From a virus, in the IMG/VR virus record IMGVR_UViG_3300008012_000022, positions 1 through 64,000 of that record: a DNA stretch of 64,000 nt. One strand, 5' to 3'. Both the position numbers and the translations under genes were made by a program. The notes under the pieces were generated by a model. That model made no database searches. It was not told the DNA's origin and was given only the letters and a program-made list of their open reading frames with translations. Within the stretch, counting starts at the first letter, position 1. The number at the start of each line of letters is the position of its first letter. Positions 1 to 47,978 of this stretch are shown here, piece after piece.

Positions 1-161
1 AAGGAAGGTTGCTTCACCCAGACGGCAATCGAAAATGATGATGTTCCGCCGAGTACATCCGGGATTTCGACGGAATCCGCTCCCGCAAAAGTAAACTCCC
101 GACTCGCGCCACCAAACGCGGGAACGCCAGCACCAAACCTATGTGAATTCGTTACCGTCAT
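1..161 (-). CDS. 5' part of a LamG/concanavalin-like virion protein, running off the window start
   Basis: ATG at 161 overlaps the stop of 158..1849; the open frame reads MTVTNSHRFGAG...SFSIAVWVKQ, and FSIAVWVK is LamG-like. Confidence 0.55.
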   Translation of the reverse strand, partial: MTVTNSHRFGAGVPAFGGASREFTFAGADSVEIPDVLGGTSSFSIAVWVKQPS

Positions 162-1849
162 GCTTTCGTTCCTATCAGGTAAATCTTGCCACCAGCCCCC
201 GCAACGGTTGAGCCTACCTGATCCACATCAATAGTGATTTCTGCGTCATCTGCTAAAACCGTGTCGGTTAATGTAGGTAAGGTAGCCGCTGTGGTGGAGG
301 TCTTCTCCGTAGCATCTATCTGGACTTTATTAGTCGTCATGATCGTGCTGCCCCCTTCATTAATATCAAATATTAGTGCCGCACCAGTTGGGGCAGTATC
401 CACACTGGCGCGAACTTCTGTAAGGTTCATTCCATAGGGCATTCTGAAAGTAGTCACTCCCGTGCCGGTTGCTAGATCTTCACCTTCATCACTAAGCGAT
501 ACCGCGATGGCATATAGCGTAGCATCAACCACGATGGCAATCTTGAGTCCCTGTCCCGCGATAGTACTTCCCACCTGATCTATATCTACCGTAATTTCAG
601 CATCGTCTGCAATGGCTGTATCAGAAATAACCGCCGCAGTTGCCGCAGTCTCGCTAGTTTTCTCGGTCGCATCTATGGTCAATTTGGTAGACAGAATGGA
701 AACCCCAGACTCGTTGATGTCCACCTGTATTGCTGCTCCGGTTGGTGCAGTGGTAACACTGGCTCGAACCTCTTTAACGGTACATGCATACGGTGCGCGA
801 AACGTCAGAGCTGCCGTGCCTGTTTCCAGATCAACATCTTCTGCACCAAGAGCAAAATGAAAAGTTTGCTGTGTTGTGACTTGAGAAACTGGTTGAAAAG
901 TTGGTGGCGATCCCGACCCATTACTTGTTAATACTTCAGTTGCGTTGCCTACCGTTACCGTTGTAGGTGCCCCAGCAGCATCCCATGTAATCAGTTCACC
1001 GTCAGTCCCGTTAGAAAGATCTTCTACATCAATATTTGATATAGAGTTGCCAGTTCCATTAGCATCAAAGGTTTTATTAGTTAACGTATCTGTTGAAAAA
1101 TCAGTAAGAAAATTGCCGGAATCAGTCTTCTGTAATGAATATTCCTCGATATGACCAGAATATGTTTCGTTCCAACCGATTTCCTCCAAATTACCAGAGT
1201 CAGCTAAGGTGAGGAAATTGCCAGAATCAGATTTATGTAGACTATATTCATCCAAATGTCCGCTTGCCGTAGCAACATACGCATCGGAGTATTCTTCGAG
1301 ATGGCCAGAAGACTGTATATTAAGAAGTTCCCCACTGTGCCATTTTGATAGAAAATTTCCTGAGTCAGAGGTTAATAATGTATTCTCTAAAACATGACCA
1401 GATAACGTTTCGTTCCAGCCTATCTCCTCTAAGTTGCCAGAGTCAGCTAGCGTAAGGAAATTGCCGCTATCGCTTTTGTGGAGTCCATACTCGTCGAGAT
1501 GTCCACTCGCCGTAGCAACATAAGCATCAGAATATTCTTCAAGATGTCCTGACGGAATTTCTCCCCAGCTTGCCCCACCGATTTGTTCGACAATATGACC
1601 CGAATTAACCTTATCCAATAAATTTCCTGAGTCAGATTTTTGCAATGAGTATTCTTCAATATGCCCAGAGTACGTTTCATTCCAACCATTCACACCTCCT
1701 ATATTACCCGAATCGGAAATTTTTAAAAACGGTAAATTCGTAATTAAGGCTCTGAACTCCGCTGTTCCCTCCGCATTATGACCTACAACATAATCCCCAG
1801 TATCAGGAGAAATGTCTTCAGAAAATTGAGTGAAATTTTGATCTGCCAT
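158..1849 (-). CDS. Tail fibre/virion protein with SGH/SGN repeats and a duplicated C-terminal beta-sandwich-like domain
   Basis: Repeats SGHLEEY/SGNFL; EVRASV.TAPTGAA...DINE.G...IDATEKTS...LADDAEIT.D.DQVGST occurs twice. Confidence 0.7.
   Translation of the reverse strand: MADQNFTQFSEDISPDTGDYVVGHNAEGTAEFRALITNLPFLKISDSGNIGGVNGWNETYSGHIEEYSLQKSDSGNLLDKVNSGHIVEQIGGASWGEIPSGHLEEYSDAYVATASGHLDEYGLHKSDSGNFLTLADSGNLEEIGWNETLSGHVLENTLLTSDSGNFLSKWHSGELLNIQSSGHLEEYSDAYVATASGHLDEYSLHKSDSGNFLTLADSGNLEEIGWNETYSGHIEEYSLQKTDSGNFLTDFSTDTLTNKTFDANGTGNSISNIDVEDLSNGTDGELITWDAAGAPTTVTVGNATEVLTSNGSGSPPTFQPVSQVTTQQTFHFALGAEDVDLETGTAALTFRAPYACTVKEVRASVTTAPTGAAIQVDINESGVSILSTKLTIDATEKTSETAATAAVISDTAIADDAEITVDIDQVGSTIAGQGLKIAIVVDATLYAIAVSLSDEGEDLATGTGVTTFRMPYGMNLTEVRASVDTAPTGAALIFDINEGGSTIMTTNKVQIDATEKTSTTAATLPTLTDTVLADDAEITIDVDQVGSTVAGAGGKIYLIGTKA
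1130..1700 (-). repeat. Intragenic diverged direct repeats encoding the SGH modules
   Basis: SGHLEEYSDAYVATASGHLDEY.LHKSDSGNFLTLADSGNLEEIGWNET occurs twice with synonymous changes; GWNETYSGHIEEYSLQK occurs twice. Confidence 0.85.
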
Positions 1850-9072: not shown

Positions 9073-10230
9073 ATGAGCACTTTTCAGTTAAACCAAACAG
9101 CCGAAGAAGTTAATAAAGCAATTTCAGGCTCATTATTGACGTTTGTTGACCCATGGGGTTATACTGGTAATATCGCAATTTACGGAGATTTTTACCAAAG
9201 CGGGTCAAAAGTTGTATTTTCCGACTTTCTACAGTCAGTAAATTCGGGACATATTGTAGACCAAATTAATGCGGTTAGTGGGTGGAGTTTAACACCATCT
9301 GGTCATCTTGACGAATATGCGTTGCACAAAACTGACAGTGGAAACTTTCTCGACAAACAGGATAGTGGTCGAATCAACCAATGGACCGAAACTGCGTCAG
9401 GACATCTTAACGAGTATGGGTTGCACAAAAGTGATAGCGGAAATTTCCTTCAAGATTTGGTTATAACGAATTTAACTGGTCCAGATGGTGTCCAACTAGA
9501 AAGTTCAGTTGGTGGGGGAAAAATTTGGTTACTTGATGTAACAGCTTATATAGGATCACCAGACAATGCTAACTATGCTGACTTCATGGATTCTGCTATT
9601 GTTTTCTCTACCGATTCAACTAATCGCCTTCAAATCGACGATAACACTATAACAGCCAGTTTACCTGTTGAAGTGCCTGATGAAGCTCTTACTTCGGATT
9701 GGGACAGTAGCACAGAAACTCCTACGAAAAATGCTGTATATGACGCTTTTATTACTACATCAGGTCATCTTGTATTAGACGAAGATGATATGGCATCATA
9801 TTCTAGTGGACAAGCGCCGAGTCAACAAAGTGTTGTAGAATATATCAAAGAACAAACTTATAAAACAGTTGGTTTAGCATGGCAATCCCCAACCTCTGAT
9901 GCTACCGTAGGAACTAAGAAGACTTATTTTGTCGTGCCACCATCTATGAGCGGTATGAATTTAGTTTTTGCTCATGCAGAAGTAGCTAATTCTGGCGTAG
10001 CGGGTGTCCAAACCTTTGATATAAATAAAAACGGATCTTCTATGCTATCAGGTAAATTGTATATTGATAGCACGGAATTAGGCAGTGATACTGCTGCGAC
10101 AGGCGTTATTATTGATACAACGAATCACACTGTTGTCACACACGATGTTATATCTGTAGACGTAGATTCTATCCACAGTTCTACTGCGGCACAAGGAGAA
10201 CTTGTTACGCTTGAATTTAGAACACCGTAA
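9073..10230 (+). CDS. Tail fibre/virion protein paralogous to 158..1849
   Basis: Shares VNSGHIV.QI and SGHL.EY.LHK.DSGNFL modules and a related C-terminal domain. Confidence 0.7.
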   Translation: MSTFQLNQTAEEVNKAISGSLLTFVDPWGYTGNIAIYGDFYQSGSKVVFSDFLQSVNSGHIVDQINAVSGWSLTPSGHLDEYALHKTDSGNFLDKQDSGRINQWTETASGHLNEYGLHKSDSGNFLQDLVITNLTGPDGVQLESSVGGGKIWLLDVTAYIGSPDNANYADFMDSAIVFSTDSTNRLQIDDNTITASLPVEVPDEALTSDWDSSTETPTKNAVYDAFITTSGHLVLDEDDMASYSSGQAPSQQSVVEYIKEQTYKTVGLAWQSPTSDATVGTKKTYFVVPPSMSGMNLVFAHAEVANSGVAGVQTFDINKNGSSMLSGKLYIDSTELGSDTAATGVIIDTTNHTVVTHDVISVDVDSIHSSTAAQGELVTLEFRTP

Positions 10231-40457: not shown

Positions 40458-41405
40458 CTATCTTGCATAACAAATACATGGGTTATTGTTTTCTGTATAC
40501 CCCCCACAGTGAGGACAAACCATATAATTTTCCTCAAACTCTTCGAAAGTCATCAAATTCTCATAATTTAATTTCCAATATTCCCATTCGGGGGTTTCAG
40601 TCCCGTCCAATTGTGATGGGTCAATTGTTGCTGGTTTCTTATTCCACACTTCGAATGAATTATCTGCCCACGCATTAATGATACGACCTTCCTCAGGCCA
40701 ATTACCACCTAATGCTAGCTGCCATTCAGACTCGTCAAGCGGCGGAAACGAAAACCTTTCAGTAGGTTTCTTTAAACAATATACCACCTTTGTGTCGGGG
40801 TGATGTTTCCAACAACTACCATCTGGATTGCTACGAACAGAATCTCTACCCTTGTCTATGAATAGCGGCGAACCATTTGGTAGTCTAACTGTATAGAATC
40901 TATTCAAATCTTCTGCTTCCAAATAATTTTGGACGCACTCTTCTGTCCACTTCAAGTCATCGAGCGGACCCGGCCCTCCAAAATTCTTTGGTACGGTGAG
41001 ATAGAAATCGCGGCCTATAAATTGTGCCCTTTCACTATACCCTCCGTTACCCTGATTACCTGCTAAGTCTACGTATGTATAACCTTGATTTTCTATCAGG
41101 TCAACAAAGCCTCTAATGTCTGCTTCGTATACTGGATTAGCTAGTTCATGATCTACTTGAATATAGAATGCATACTCACTCTGACACTGACTGAATAATT
41201 GCACGGTGCCAGCACCACAACCAATATTGATCTGGTTGTTGATTACCTCCACCCTCTCTTCACGAGCATACTTGTCAGCGTATCGTTCGCCACCATTGTT
41301 GAGAATCACCACCTTGTAATCGAAGTGACAAAGCCTCCTGATGGATGATAGTAGTTCCTCCAGTTCCTTTGGTCGATTGTAATCGAGTATAAGAATTTCT
41401 GTCAT
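40458..41405 (-). CDS. Family 2 glycosyltransferase-like protein with a Cys-rich C-terminal appendage
   Basis: ILDYNRP.EL..LL.SI, N..NIG.G.G, Q.DH. Confidence 0.75.
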   Translation of the reverse strand: MTEILILDYNRPKELEELLSSIRRLCHFDYKVVILNNGGERYADKYAREERVEVINNQINIGCGAGTVQLFSQCQSEYAFYIQVDHELANPVYEADIRGFVDLIENQGYTYVDLAGNQGNGGYSERAQFIGRDFYLTVPKNFGGPGPLDDLKWTEECVQNYLEAEDLNRFYTVRLPNGSPLFIDKGRDSVRSNPDGSCWKHHPDTKVVYCLKKPTERFSFPPLDESEWQLALGGNWPEEGRIINAWADNSFEVWNKKPATIDPSQLDGTETPEWEYWKLNYENLMTFEEFEENYMVCPHCGGYTENNNPCICYAR

Positions 41406-41950
41406 GCTATTATTCTAACCTTTTTAGGGAAGAACTTACATTCATATTCCCTCATATAATTCTCTGGTTTCGATTGGTGAAAGATAGGCATCGGCATATC
41501 ATCTTCGAGTTCTTCGATAGGAAAGCGCCGATCATTAAACATACCGCTCATAGCTATACGATGATAACCTTCGATAGCTTCCTCTGAACCTGATAGTGTA
41601 GCGAAAACTGTCAGTTTAGGTATGTGAATAAGACCTCTATCGTCATCGAACCTCATCACCTTCTCTCCACACAGATAGTATGTTCCCCTGTGATTCTCTT
41701 CTAGATCGTTATCTATCAATTCTTCATCAGGTATATCGACTTGACGTTTCTCCCACCAACCCCTAATGTAATCTGCCATGTAGGTCTTGCCAGTTGCAGG
41801 GGGCATGATGAATAAATTATAATCATACTTTAAGTAGTCACTCCATATTTGATTCTGACAATTATAGGTCCACTCAACTTCTGGAAGTGTTGGTAATGCT
41901 GCGGCTAGAGGTGCTACAACCGCTGTCTTCAATAAATTTCGTCGCTTCAT
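41402..41950 (-). CDS. Twin-arginine-leader protein with a condensed terminase-like ATPase body
   Basis: MKRRNLLKTAVVAPLAAA; MPPATGKT; YMREYECKF. Confidence 0.55.
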   Translation of the reverse strand: MKRRNLLKTAVVAPLAAALPTLPEVEWTYNCQNQIWSDYLKYDYNLFIMPPATGKTYMADYIRGWWEKRQVDIPDEELIDNDLEENHRGTYYLCGEKVMRFDDDRGLIHIPKLTVFATLSGSEEAIEGYHRIAMSGMFNDRRFPIEELEDDMPMPIFHQSKPENYMREYECKFFPKKVRIIA

Positions 41951-41954
41951 ATCA

Positions 41955-42140
41955 CTAAATTATATTTGATACTTTGTCATCTATGATGATTCGACCCTCA
42001 TGAAGCTCCGCATACCAACCAACCTTCTTTGACCTGTCAACATAAACAAGTTCGTCTTGAATCCTGACTTCTATCTCTTCCTCTTGTTTCTTTATAAAAG
42101 GAAGTGCACAAAATAATTTTAATAAATTTCGCCGCTTCAT
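41955..42140 (-). CDS. Twin-arginine-leader peptide with a capsid-C-terminus-like segment
   Basis: MKRRNLLKLFCALP; RSKKVGWYAELHEGRIIIDDK. Confidence 0.55.
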   Translation of the reverse strand: MKRRNLLKLFCALPFIKKQEEEIEVRIQDELVYVDRSKKVGWYAELHEGRIIIDDKVSNII

Positions 42141-42535
42141 GATAGTTTCTTCGTCATGATTGGGTTCCCTTTCTCATCTACGTTAGGATTGCTGAACGGA
42201 TCACCTTTAACTTCAGATTGTGACCTTTTTGATTCCTTTTCTGGTTTACATTCATCAACAAATTTAGGAATTTGCCCCGCTTTTAGTTGAGCGTCAAGTT
42301 CTCTCTGTTCCTCTTTGAGGTCAGCAAGGTCAAGTTCTAACGCAAGAACTTCTTCTTTTGCACGTCGAAGATAGATCGCAAAATCTAAAGCTTCCTCATA
42401 TGCATGTTGTAACCATTCACGATGCGACAGTGGATTTTCTTCAACCGTCGTTCCATATTTCTCCTTACCGAACTTTTGACGAGCGGCGATATCTTCACAC
42501 ACTCGCTTCTCTGTTCCTTCTACTTCAATTTCCAT
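42137..42535 (-). CDS. Conserved phage protein (all-alpha NTP-PPase-like)
   Basis: R...G.EKYGTT, WLQHA.EE.LD.AIYL. Confidence 0.7.
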   Translation of the reverse strand: MEIEVEGTEKRVCEDIAARQKFGKEKYGTTVEENPLSHREWLQHAYEEALDFAIYLRRAKEEVLALELDLADLKEEQRELDAQLKAGQIPKFVDECKPEKESKRSQSEVKGDPFSNPNVDEKGNPIMTKKLS

Positions 42536-44501: not shown

Positions 44502-45511
44502 TAGAATAAATCGTTCTCTGAAATCGCCTTATTTTTGCGCACGTAATTAGTTGGTCGCTGATTGAAAAAATCTACATGGACACCAGCAATTAGCTTCTCG
44601 TCAAACCATCTGGTTTTTTCAAGACGAGCTTCATTTACGTCAAATATAGGGTCTAATCCTATTCCTGTCAAGCTTTCATTTAGCCTATTCTTAATAAAGT
44701 CTTTCACTTCTAAGATTTTTATATGATCTGGCTTGCATCCATCCACTGTTGGTTCAAAGATTAAATCGCCATCAGGAAAAATCCATTTCAATAACTTCTC
44801 TTCAGCGCGATAAGCCTTGCGAGAGTAGAGGTAAATGAGTTTTTTTAACTCATCATTGAAAAAGTCAGGATGTTCTTCTTTAATCTGGTTGATTAACCAC
44901 GTGCCAAACATTCCATGAATTGCTTCCTCCTTCGAAGTTGCCGCGACTACATTGTTGATATCTACCAGCCACTTGCGATGCTTGTTGAAGGATTGAATGA
45001 TAAAAAACTGAGAAAATAACGAAACATTTTCTATAAAAAGAGAAAATAAAATGATTGATTTGAGGAAATTCTCTTCCAGTCTTGCCGTGGAGAACTCTTT
45101 ATATTTCGTTAGGTAAACGTGACGGTCATTCACCGCAGGAATTTCTTTAATCTTCTCGAACTCTTCGTTTAGCCCCAAAATTTCTAACAGTGCAGAGTAT
45201 GCATCAAGATGACGTTTCTCTGACTCACCAAATGTAGCGCCAACTCCGAGCACTTCTGGTTTAGGTATGTGACGATGTAGGTTGCACCAGAAAGTTTTGA
45301 CGCCAACCTCTACTTGAGATATTAGAAGTAGGCATTTCTTAATTACCTCTCTTTGGTAATCATTTAGTTCGGTGTGATATTCTTGAATATCTGTTGTAAA
45401 ATTAAACTCTGTATGTACCCAATAGGATTGTCGGATTGCTTCTACGTAATCTTCACAGATTGGATACTCAAGTGGTTTAATATTATCTCTCGGTTCGAAT
45501 AAGTCGCTCAT
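44501..45511 (-). CDS. nrdB: Ribonucleotide reductase beta subunit, class Id-like
   Basis: W.HTE, SQVEVGVK, E.RH..AY, IENVSLFSQF, EE.IH, DFF..RPTNY. Confidence 0.92.
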   Translation of the reverse strand: MSDLFEPRDNIKPLEYPICEDYVEAIRQSYWVHTEFNFTTDIQEYHTELNDYQREVIKKCLLLISQVEVGVKTFWCNLHRHIPKPEVLGVGATFGESEKRHLDAYSALLEILGLNEEFEKIKEIPAVNDRHVYLTKYKEFSTARLEENFLKSIILFSLFIENVSLFSQFFIIQSFNKHRKWLVDINNVVAATSKEEAIHGMFGTWLINQIKEEHPDFFNDELKKLIYLYSRKAYRAEEKLLKWIFPDGDLIFEPTVDGCKPDHIKILEVKDFIKNRLNESLTGIGLDPIFDVNEARLEKTRWFDEKLIAGVHVDFFNQRPTNYVRKNKAISENDLF

Positions 45512-46007
45512 GGTTTGTGTCTAATTGATTAAGTTGCGCGAACTCACCAAACAAACACATGGCTTTTCGATTATAAGCCTTAGCAGCTTCGACTTCTGAA
45601 TCAAATCTGCCGATCCAAATCTGTTTTCCTTCGAAACGAATACTTGCCAACCATTTAGAGCGTCGTTTCTCCCAACAAACCCCCTTGTATTGACTAGTAG
45701 TTTTAGCTTTTTTAAATCGATTACGGTTATTTTCTGCTTGAGTGCATTCGCGTAAATTTGAAAAATGATTATTCTGTACGTTACCATCTTTATGGTCTAC
45801 GAATTCAGGCCAATAATCATTTTCCAAAAAGAACACAAGGCGATGAACATAAAATGTTTTTTTGCCGTCTTGTGTTTCTAATATTAGGCGCAATTTTTTA
45901 TTATCACGCCTAACAGGAGATGAAATTCCTTTCTTAGAAATAACACCTTTAGACCTATTGTAATCGACTTGATTAAGAAGTTCTGCTCTGGTTAATAAGT
46001 TTTTCAT
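45483..46007 (-). CDS. HNH-AP2 homing endonuclease
   Basis: HRL, VDHKDG...NN..SNLR, YKGV.W, IGRFDSE.EAAKAYN. Confidence 0.9.
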   Translation of the reverse strand: MKNLLTRAELLNQVDYNRSKGVISKKGISSPVRRDNKKLRLILETQDGKKTFYVHRLVFFLENDYWPEFVDHKDGNVQNNHFSNLRECTQAENNRNRFKKAKTTSQYKGVCWEKRRSKWLASIRFEGKQIWIGRFDSEVEAAKAYNRKAMCLFGEFAQLNQLDTNHERLIRTER

Positions 46008-46476
46008 AATTAGTATCCAGATCAGAAATGGGCATATCATAGACATCTAATTTAGCCACAAAGCCGTTCTCTTTGCACACGTCACCCTTGCGGACACGTA
46101 TACCCTGAGAAATTAATTCGTCGTGTTTTTTAAAGCCGAGAAACCAGCCTTTTGTTAAATTTTTATGCACACGCACGAACGCATAGTAATCACAGTCCTG
46201 TAAATAATAATCAGCAATGGTGCACATATAATGAGGTAGTGGAGTTACCGAAGTCATTTTGGTTTTAACGTCTATTGTTAAACCATTCTCTAGAACGAGA
46301 TCGTATTCGTATGTGTTTGCAAATTCGCCGCCTAAAACATGTTGTGCGATGTGCTCTCCTATAAAACCAACTAAATTCCCTGCACCTTTTCTGATCGAAT
46401 GATTGAGATGACCTAACTCATCTGCTTTTTCTTTTGCGGACTGATACCACTCGTCTGTGACTTCAAACTCGATCAT
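45973..46476 (-). CDS. PD-(D/E)XK-like nuclease
   Basis: G.IGE, YDL, IDVKTK, D.Y.FV. Confidence 0.65.
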   Translation of the reverse strand: MIEFEVTDEWYQSAKEKADELGHLNHSIRKGAGNLVGFIGEHIAQHVLGGEFANTYEYDLVLENGLTIDVKTKMTSVTPLPHYMCTIADYYLQDCDYYAFVRVHKNLTKGWFLGFKKHDELISQGIRVRKGDVCKENGFVAKLDVYDMPISDLDTNYEKLINQSRTS

Positions 46477-46903: not shown

Positions 46904-47521
46904 ATGGATAACGATTTTATGCAGTTTTCAGGGTCTAACAGGTCCGAAATGGACGACAATTATCTCGTATCGTTGGTAAAAGATGAAGCAGATGAGGGAG
47001 CTTTGTTAGAGTTGATGGAACGTCACAGTGGCATCTTTCATCAGACCGTAGCTAACTTCATGCCGCCATCTTATACGAATTCTCAGCGGGAAGATGTCTT
47101 TGAGGAAAAGCCGACTTACTTCTTCGAAGCTATCGCCTCATTTGACGAAGCTCGTAACGCAAAATTTTCAACATGGCTTGCGAATAAAACTAAGTACACT
47201 CTACTTACTCAAAGGTCAAAGGTAAAGGGTCAACCTACATTCTGTGAGTATGACGACAGCTTAGGCGGCGAACATGGACTGTCACCAGAAACATATCTGT
47301 TGCGAAAAGACCAGTCAGAAGAAATTCTAAATTTGGTCCTTGACAAATATGGATCTGAGGTCTACGATATCGTGAAGCAGAAATATTTTGGTGGTGAGAA
47401 GAAGACTGGACAAACGTTCAGTCAAATTGCTGACGGTTTAGGGGTATCACCTCAAGCCATTCAAGCAAAACATAAAGACGCCATGTTATTTTTGAAAAAG
47501 AAACTATCGTATGATTTTTGA
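46904..47521 (+). CDS. Phage RNA polymerase sigma factor (sigma70 family, regions 2 and 4)
   Basis: AL.EL..RH, AI.SFD..R..KFSTW, C-terminal HTH TF.QIA..LGVS. Confidence 0.88.
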   Translation: MDNDFMQFSGSNRSEMDDNYLVSLVKDEADEGALLELMERHSGIFHQTVANFMPPSYTNSQREDVFEEKPTYFFEAIASFDEARNAKFSTWLANKTKYTLLTQRSKVKGQPTFCEYDDSLGGEHGLSPETYLLRKDQSEEILNLVLDKYGSEVYDIVKQKYFGGEKKTGQTFSQIADGLGVSPQAIQAKHKDAMLFLKKKLSYDF

Positions 47522-47978
47522 TCGGCAAAAAATTCTGGAAAAATACAATTATAATCCAGATATGGGAATCTTAATAGCGAAAGATTCTGCCAAAATTATT
47601 GGTGCTTTAAATACTAGTTCAAAATATTTACAAATAAAACTTGATGGGCAGCAACCCTTAGTTCATCGAATTATTTATTTTTTAGAAACAGGAGAACAAC
47701 CTGAAATTGTTGATCATATTGATGGTGATACTCGTAATAACCGTATTACTAATCTTCGCGCCTCAAACAACCAATTTAATCAAGCTAATCAAATTCAACA
47801 TAGGGGCTATTCGAAATATAAAGGTGTTTGTTTAGACCGTAAGTATTGGAAAGCTAGCATTCAATATAATAGAAAATCTATCCATATAGGCAATTTTAAA
47901 ACAGAATTAGAAGCAGCACAAGCTTACGATAAGAAAGCAAAAGAACTTTTTGGAGAACACGCACGCACAAATTTTTAA
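47511..47978 (+). CDS. HNH-AP2 homing endonuclease
   Basis: VHR, VDHIDGD..NNRI.NLR, SKYKGV, IG.F.TE.EAA.AYD..A. Confidence 0.9.
   Translation: MIFDRQKILEKYNYNPDMGILIAKDSAKIIGALNTSSKYLQIKLDGQQPLVHRIIYFLETGEQPEIVDHIDGDTRNNRITNLRASNNQFNQANQIQHRGYSKYKGVCLDRKYWKASIQYNRKSIHIGNFKTELEAAQAYDKKAKELFGEHARTNF

Follow-up and report, generated by a model that had tools for sequence, protein, structure and literature searches.

What use might a phage have for two small neighbouring genes that begin with the same twin-arginine translocation (Tat)-type leader and continue into what appear to be pieces of a terminase and of a capsid protein? The pair, encoding proteins of 182 and 61 amino acids (aa), lies on the minus strand at 41402-41950 and 41955-42140 of the window, by which we mean the whole 64,000 nt stretch of DNA that was analysed; this makes up the opening 64 kb of one 93,368 bp viral contig with a G+C content of 39.6%, a linear record in IMG/VR (IMGVR_UViG_3300008012_000022) for which CheckV gives a completeness estimate of 67%. 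An original prediction, made from the letters alone, had noticed the repeated leader and proposed that the two products are miniature decoys for immune sensors. The anatomy of the gene pair can be described with solid confidence, and constitutes a well-defined and apparently undescribed design. As to its meaning, we favour two accessory genes, each joining a Tat-type leader to a substitute for a protein of head assembly or DNA packaging, with the substitutes acting through mimicry towards the partners of the genuine proteins; taken as a whole, this reading has somewhat less than an even chance of being right.

A common leader and two different cargoes

Both open reading frames (ORFs) start with MKRRNLLK, and the likeness reported at the DNA level was confirmed, with the first 24 bases agreeing at 22 positions. 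RRNLLK occupies residues 3-8 of each ORF, which fits the Tat consensus (S/T)-R-R-x-F-L-K near the N terminus; leaders of the MNRRxFLK type are common in Bacteroidota. A six-frame scan of the whole contig found credible RR-x-hydrophobic-hydrophobic leaders in these two ORFs only, a third match to the search pattern, in a 37 aa ORF at 1778-1891 on the plus strand, being discarded for want of an N-terminal twin-arginine leader. Chance was also rejected as the origin of the shared leader, because the overrepresented octamer GCGGCGAA covers just eight of the 24 shared bases. This octamer is a DNA-level motif in its own right: 26 copies are present in the window (2241-63439) against an expected 0.89, on both strands and in all reading frames, spaced roughly 2.4 kb apart, and the 182 aa ORF has a one-mismatch version of it.

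The resemblance of the 61 aa product to the C termini of phage major capsid proteins, which the original prediction had put forward, proved to hold. Residues 14-56 align with residues 324-366 of the major capsid protein encoded on the same contig (42% of 43 aa identical; BLASTP E 1e-12 as a pairwise comparison and 1e-10 against all 459 contig ORFs), and this was the one clear match when both small proteins were compared with every ORF of the contig; in an all-against-all ORF comparison, it was likewise the single resemblance between a small ORF and a structural gene. The matched 373 aa ORF, at 84649-85770 of the contig and hence outside the window, is identified as the major capsid gene by its features in the ESM Atlas (0.97-0.99 to the Mu GpT and Phage_capsid_4 clusters), by structure (template modelling (TM) scores of 0.77-0.93) and by its place two genes downstream of the portal gene; it is found in the same module in 15 IMG/VR relatives, at 58-67% identity. 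The homology is ungapped, extending from about residue 14 of the small ORF as far as the capsid protein's natural C terminus, and the 61 aa ORF is therefore a capsid-gene 3' end preceded by the first eight codons of the leader. Only the last ~50 residues, and not the complete fold, of an HK97-fold major capsid protein of the Mu GpT/Phage_capsid_4 type are therefore represented.

At the DNA level, the copy is old. It shares 53% of its bases with the capsid gene, and in the core VDRSKKVGWYAE, where 12 out of 12 residues are identical in the two proteins, nine codons differ synonymously (AGG vs CGT, for example). Comparison with 12 aligned capsid proteins shows that the fragment retains the invariant residues R346, G351, W352, Y353, E358 and R360, and is without the equally invariant R323, D340, D341, Q342 and G370. 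When the columns invariant among the 11 closer capsid proteins are counted (that of the more distant relative G001, described below, being left out), the core keeps eight and loses two, and the part upstream of it keeps two and loses six. The fragment and the phage's own capsid protein have residues of their own lineage in common (S, K, V, A and E), and EGRIII is common with the relatives. From these small numbers we infer that the fragment has long evolved outside the capsid gene, with one sub-motif under purifying selection; such constraint on the capsid-like core argues against the decaying debris that the original prediction had allowed for. The exact 61 aa protein is encoded on 21 assembled contigs, and a variant with a V-to-I change on one further contig. 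Twenty-four public sequencing runs were found for the stretch, all of them freshwater DNA metagenomes and none listed as RNA; contigs from four runs equal the window sequence exactly, with zero variant letters, hence a population ratio of nonsynonymous to synonymous substitution rates (dN/dS) could not be computed. A predicted complex between the capsid protein and residues 9-61 of the 61 aa ORF scored 0.00, which is evidence neither way.

Eight relatives of the 182 aa protein came from an exhaustive phmmer search and a further four from a profile search, giving a family of about 13 members from phages and metagenomes, 113-253 aa in length and 23-57% identical. A profile scan of 185,579 prokaryote genomes with the family alignment detected no member, metagenome contigs scanned in the same way gave no match, tblastn of the 182 aa protein against 50,697 phage records also gave none, and a word-indexed protein search returned a near-identical copy only. 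The leader is the best-conserved segment of the family, with M1, R3 and P14 invariant and N2, R4 and K8 nearly so. All members open with M(N/K)R(R/K)x(L/F/I)(L/I)(K/N), narrowing to M(N/K)RRN(L/F)(L/I)K in all but two of those examined (P0007, which has R-K, and P0009, which ends in N), and continue with 10-15 uncharged residues containing a conserved Pro and Gly, 15 such residues following the RR motif in the window protein. The Pfam TAT_signal model (PF10518) recognises this leader weakly in three of eight family members; a sub-threshold Tat signal is all that Pfam and PHROGs see in the 182 aa ORF itself. Beyond the leader come, in order, LLPFQxEIW, NLFILPRGxGKT, a variable insert with a stretch of the form hhhhD(D/E/N), KxxIF(T/A)(T/S)I and a strand with a conserved Asn, and about half of the members have the C-terminal motif F.RE..CEF, or (R/K)(E/D)xxC(E/K)F.

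The terminase landmarks that had been read from the single sequence are therefore a property of the family, in which Q32 and K55 are invariant and T56 nearly so. It was also said that the product is too short for a terminase and has no nuclease domain; indeed, it stops nine residues past the motif that closes the ATPase domain. The statement that there is no clear Walker B motif requires amendment, in that an hhhhD(D/E/N) stretch is present in every member (VMRFDDD here), though poorly aligned and modelled: it reads D-D, D-N or D-E, and the predicted local distance difference test (pLDDT) score there is below 50 in both of the models discussed next. GK(T/S) is conserved across the family; the Arg of the terminase P-loop (xxRGxGKT) is missing from the window protein, which has Pro instead, and from P0002 and P0011. 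Owing to the loss of this Arg and the variability and poor modelling of the Walker B candidate, catalysis by these proteins seems doubtful.

Sequence models on their own weakly favour superfamily 2 (SF2) helicases, by way of the Q motif and P-loop (weak matches to ResIII, DEAD and DEXH). The AlphaFold model of the window protein (pLDDT 61) leaves Hef, PhoH2 and T4 gp17 tied at Z scores of 7.4-7.0 (7.0 for T4 gp17), and had no Foldseek match in the PDB at E up to 0.001. The model of family member P0005 (pLDDT 65, with 75-89 in the C-terminal half) has TerL ATPase domains as all of its best seven PDB matches, at Z scores from 9.3 to 8.1 (P74-26, 9.3 over 148 aa with a root-mean-square deviation of 3.5; HK97, 9.0; PhiV-1, 8.9; T4 gp17, 8.8 and 8.6; Sf6, 8.2; D6E, 8.1); the alignments span 139-166 residues between model residues 14 and 183, and the eighth match, a non-terminase, falls to 7.5. 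The best four matches of the same model in BFVD are also terminases (E 4e-5 to 4e-4). When the family was compared with a TerL alignment of the lineage by hhalign, the region of the Q motif and Walker A matched at E 2.6e-6 (probability 89%), and the C-terminal third alone matched the collinear end of the TerL ATPase domain, columns 259-352, with a score of 27.4, against 13.4 for reversed TerL, 8.8 for a capsid alignment and at most 15.3 for 30 column shuffles. In the ESM Atlas, five of the nine nearest structure clusters are Terminase_6N, which at TM scores below 0.5 is a lead only. On account of the collinear C-terminal match and the fold ranking of P0005, the helicase assignment was rejected in favour of terminase, and on these models the family is a compressed terminase-ATPase-like domain of ~160 residues without a nuclease. 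Likeness to TerL is thus seen at both profile and fold level, and we regard the capsid and terminase homologies, as read from the sequences, as very probably genuine. Set beside the N-terminal ATPase domain of TerL (T4 gp17, P74-26, HK97 and Sf6; Terminase_6N), the family shows Q motif, Walker A, motif III and F.RE..CEF in an unchanged order, and most members have the xxRGxGKT form of Walker A; it differs in its size (~160 residues rather than ~250), its variable Walker B region, the lack of a nuclease domain and of any Pfam or PHROGs match, the export-type leader, and its coexistence with a normal TerL.

Accessory status and recurrence in other phages

P0005 is encoded in a complete 179 kb IMG/VR phage, G001, which has ~36 genes in common with the contig, the capsid protein being 38%, the portal 36% and the ribonucleotide reductase 62% identical. 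G001 keeps a normal 624 aa TerL, adjoining the portal and ~87 kb from the gene for P0005; therefore the mini gene is an accessory, paralogue-like gene and not the packaging enzyme, and the possibility that the 182 aa ORF is one piece of a split TerL was rejected, as both genes are present, far apart, in this complete relative. In all 15 IMG/VR relatives, as in G001, TerL lies upstream of the portal and ~6 kb from the capsid gene. None was detected in the contig's 93 kb by PF03237, PF17289 or tblastn with the TerL proteins of the relatives, presumably a consequence of the incomplete record. Upstream of the portal, at 90258-93368 of the contig (L001:12560-15669), lie small plus-strand ORFs and no TerL, which may be the effect of either a rearrangement or the incompleteness of the record.

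When IMG/VR was scanned twice for the DNA pattern of the leader codons, 44 and 51 matches resulted, of which 35 and 34, respectively, stand at the start of ORFs that are 55 aa or longer and contain a hydrophobic stretch. These ORFs amount to 57 distinct proteins with a median length near 110 aa, each opening with M(N/K)RRN(L/F)xK plus the hydrophobic stretch (loci L030-L134), and several of their families, such as those of 62 aa, 156 aa and 176-189 aa, span many contigs. A Pfam scan of ten of the leader ORFs gave no significant match to the cargo. The original prediction had suggested looking in related genomes for leader ORFs that carry fragments of structural genes, and an example was found in an unrelated phage, L047 (IMGVR_UViG_3300000559_000015, 13.5 kb), in which tandem leader ORFs of 99 and 88 aa (1722-2281) sit between head-module genes of 476 and 639 aa. 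The leader of the 88 aa ORF scores 27.5 bits with PF10518, above the cut-off of 22.7, and behind it lies a cargo matching the first ~58 residues of the major head protein that the same phage encodes (48% identity, E 5e-13; head-protein assignment by phrog_9953, E 6e-74). Three other leader-ORF families had no larger parent gene in their partial records, and to label all leader ORFs as pieces of virion proteins would go too far. The design does nevertheless recur beyond this phage, as L047 shows.

Proposed partner mimicry and its alternatives

In the reading that we favour, the 182 aa gene would be the older element, a compressed TerL ATPase domain retained alongside the normal TerL, and the 61 aa gene a lineage-specific one, for which the first eight codons of the older gene would have been reused in front of the last ~50 codons of the capsid gene, with only the R-x4-GWY-x4-E-x-R core being preserved. 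The leader would carry both proteins to the host's TatBC receptor at the inner membrane, where they would be exported or tethered; the cargo, mimicking a face of TerL or of the capsid protein, would bind the usual partner of that face and take it away from the site of assembly. That both genes are functional is probable, whilst use of the leader by the Tat pathway seems evenly balanced, and action by partner mimicry is a tentative suggestion to which we give somewhat less than an even prospect. Like Tat signal peptides (PF10518, TIGR01409; small Tat substrates and hitchhiker export), the leaders have RRxLLK right after a two-residue n-region, then 10-15 uncharged residues in which A, L, P and G abound, followed by a polar region, and their PF10518 scores range from weak to significant (17.7 bits here, 27.5 bits in L047). 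Unlike these, they are encoded by phages and precede a fragment of cytoplasmic assembly machinery belonging to the phage itself instead of a cofactor enzyme, they have conserved Pro and Gly residues in the hydrophobic (h-) region and mostly lack a cleavage site, and the h-region of the 61 aa ORF is a stub.

Several observations weigh against this reading. With PF10518, the 182 aa ORF reaches E 0.0034, its bit score lying below the cut-off, and the 61 aa ORF gives no match; TIGR01409 matches none of 12 family members. Past the RR motif, the 61 aa ORF has only eight uncharged residues, too few for a usual Tat h-region, and only some four of 11 members have an AxA cleavage site, the 182 aa protein of the window not being among them. 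The periplasm, being free of ATP, offers a P-loop protein no obvious use. No member matches a terminase family in Pfam or PHROGs at E up to 1, and the fold call leans on P0005, which is 27-31% identical to the window protein, as the latter's own model ties helicases with terminases. The uneven conservation of the capsid fragment is of borderline significance (Fisher p = 0.054), and homologues of the 61 aa ORF among small proteins were found in near-identical genomes only.

The immune-decoy idea of the original prediction owes its appeal to the part that terminase and capsid protein play as classic triggers of Avs and CapRel-type defences. The mini-TerL and capsid peptide would bind Avs1-3, Avs7/8/10, CapRel or Lit-like sensors without activating them, or the leader would drag the bound sensors to the membrane, and the real TerL and capsid would be protected. 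Terminase triggers Avs1-3 and KpAvs2 (PMC11564622), and the major capsid protein triggers Avs7, Avs8 and Avs10, sensors which contact conserved core folds (PMC13581612); no phage proteins are better documented in this triggering role than the two from which the cargoes come. The fragment reads RSKKVGWYAE, as does the phage's own capsid protein, against RQ(N/K)K(T/L)GWYG(K/Q) in the relatives, which fits a mimic of self; the PhiV-1 terminase chain of an Avs3 complex (8dgc_E) is among the best structural matches (Z 8.9); and loss of the P-loop Arg from several members, the window protein included, suits binding over catalysis. However, simple cytoplasmic titration leaves the Tat leader unexplained, and a literature search found no paper on Tat-leader fusions to pieces of virion proteins, nor any on terminase or capsid decoys. 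A fragment bearing the epitope could equally trigger the sensor, as does the Gol peptide of T4 gp23, the trigger of Lit. Gol and other capsid-derived triggers (of Lit, CapRel and Avs7/8/10) resemble the 61 aa gene in that a short capsid segment serves, or could serve, as a recognisable unit by itself; Gol, however, is an internal stretch of a full capsid protein and sets off defence, whereas here a separate gene holds the C-terminal ~50 residues behind a leader, and any link to defence is conjecture. We consider decoys of this kind unlikely. A broader version, in which leader-tagged fragments of virion and packaging proteins form a widespread, undescribed counter-defence, serving as epitope mimics with which a sensor would hitchhike to the Tat translocon and be exported or trapped at the membrane, the cytoplasm being cleared before the late proteins appear, is improbable.

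Recombination could also account for part of the arrangement, with only the 182 aa gene functional and the 61 aa ORF a scar, in which a stray capsid 3' end, inserted at the 5' end of the leader gene along with a 24-base duplication, would still be open by chance. The succession of leader (24 nt), insert and leader (24 nt) does look like an insertion with duplicated flanks, a signal peptide would need a longer h-region, homologues are confined to near-identical genomes with public contigs free of variation, and the dispersed octamer GCGGCGAA within the leader codons could mark recombination sites. Yet synonymous sites of the core are saturated with all of its residues kept, whilst capsid-invariant residues have been lost elsewhere in the fragment; 61 codons are open in a genome of 60% A+T and coupled to both neighbours; and in an independent phage, L047, a leader of this kind is joined to the opposite end of the capsid protein. 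We consider a scar distinctly unlikely. Truncated subunits of oligomeric machines are classic poisons, and since both cargoes are pieces of such machines (capsomers and the pentameric TerL ring), the genes might be weapons against competitors, either dominant-negative poisons of co-infecting phages or satellites, or superinfection-exclusion factors of the envelope, a role to which a location among early and middle genes is suited. A capsid core identical to that of the phage's own capsid protein would nevertheless be expected to poison the phage itself, and the leader has no clear role in a cytoplasmic poison; we give this proposal very little credence. The capsid-targeting sequence (CTS) of T4 is a conserved N-terminal tag common to the internal proteins, which are encoded at polymorphic loci, and the leader might similarly be a virion-targeting or processing tag, the proteins being packed in the head and delivered with the DNA. 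As in T4, a short conserved tag precedes different, unrelated cargoes in adjacent small genes; its invariant Pro and Gly positions (K-x5-P-x2-A-x-P-x2-G) would be needless in a generic signal peptide, and the acidic residues that follow (PEVE, VQAEE, QEEE) recall the x-x-E sites of prohead proteases. This tag, though, is hydrophobic, its RRxLLK and uncharged stretch match the Tat consensus specifically, with related leaders recognised by Pfam, its cargoes are copies of virion or packaging proteins, and the gene pair is far from the structural module; a CTS-like role is most improbable.

If the proteins of our favoured reading are made and targeted as their sequences suggest, they would provide a modular display of pieces of the assembly machinery at or beyond the inner membrane, which lies outside any textbook phage function, with both cargoes drawn from the proteins most often read by bacterial NLR-like and toxin-antitoxin sensors. 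Should the decoy role fall away, there is still a compressed terminase ATPase domain, conserved in the presence of an ordinary TerL, a piece of capsid protein held under constraint in a gene of its own, and several dozen distinct small leader ORFs, together a new and unannotated class of phage accessory genes.

Coordinates and genomic setting

The features of the gene pair are collected in Table 1.

Table 1. Features of the two leader genes; positions are those of the window.
Feature	Position	Strand	Remarks
182 aa gene	41402..41950	-	Tat-type leader and minimal TerL-ATPase-like domain; rare phage/metagenome family
Leader of 182 aa gene, residues 1-23	41882..41950	-	MKRRNLLK and 15 uncharged residues (TAVVAPLAAALPTLP), then acidic residues
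Q-motif region WTYNCQNQIW (family LLPFQxEIW)	41843..41872	-	Q32 invariant; paired by hhalign with the TerL Q motif of the lineage
Walker A FIMPPATGKT (family FILPRGxGKT)	41783..41812	-	K55 invariant, T56 nearly invariant
Candidate Walker B VMRFDDD, uncertain	41639..41659	-	hhhhD(D/E/N) stretch in all members; poor alignment
Motif-III-like strand KLTVFATLSG (family KxxIF(T/A)(T/S)I)	41588..41617	-	pairs with TerL KLIxLSSPS in the extended hhalign alignment
C-terminal motif YMREYECKF (family F.RE..CEF)	41432..41458	-	collinear TerL columns 259-352 matched
61 aa gene	41955..42140	-	leader stub and last ~50 aa of major capsid protein
Shared leader codons 1-8 (MKRRNLLK), 61 aa gene	42117..42140	-	22 of 24 bases as in the 182 aa gene
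Uncharged stub LFCALPFI, 61 aa gene	42093-42116	-	eight residues, then KKQEEE
Capsid-homologous segment, residues 14-56 of 61 aa ORF	41973..42101	-	BLASTP to own capsid protein
Capsid-identical core VDRSKKVGWYAE	42006-42041	-	12 identical residues
Copy of octamer GCGGCGAA	42128..42135	-	on the K-R-R-N codons of the 61 aa ORF

Both genes sit in a long minus-strand operon for replication and nucleotide metabolism. The start of the 61 aa gene overlaps the stop codon of an upstream 132 aa gene in an ATGA, the spacer between the 61 and 182 aa genes is four bases long, and the stop codon of the latter overlaps, again in an ATGA, the start of a downstream GT2 glycosyltransferase gene. Residues 10-67 of the 132 aa product (42137-42535 of the window, minus strand) match eight PHROGs of unknown function (best phrog_11184, E 1.7e-15), and are followed by a charged coiled region.

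The contig encodes a ribonucleotide reductase, DnaB, a family-B-like DNA polymerase, a UvsX-like recombinase, NAMPT and several glycosyltransferases, with a portal-like protein and the structural module past the end of the window. Across the whole contig, Shine-Dalgarno-like tetramers are found in the 20 bases ahead of only seven of 79 long ORFs, the upstream regions being A/T-rich, which hints at a host without reliance on Shine-Dalgarno pairing and hence Bacteroidota-like. Just past the window, a 4,456 aa ORF occupies 64402-77772 of the contig on the minus strand; its counterpart in the 179 kb relative is 2,568 aa long (33% identity over 393 aa). Two pairs of paralogues are also present in the contig: one at 45483-46046 (minus strand) and 47511-47978 (plus strand) of the window, with 46% identity over 114 aa, and another, involving a tail-fibre-like protein, at 158-1849 (minus strand) and 9073-10230 (plus strand), with 32% identity over 409 aa.

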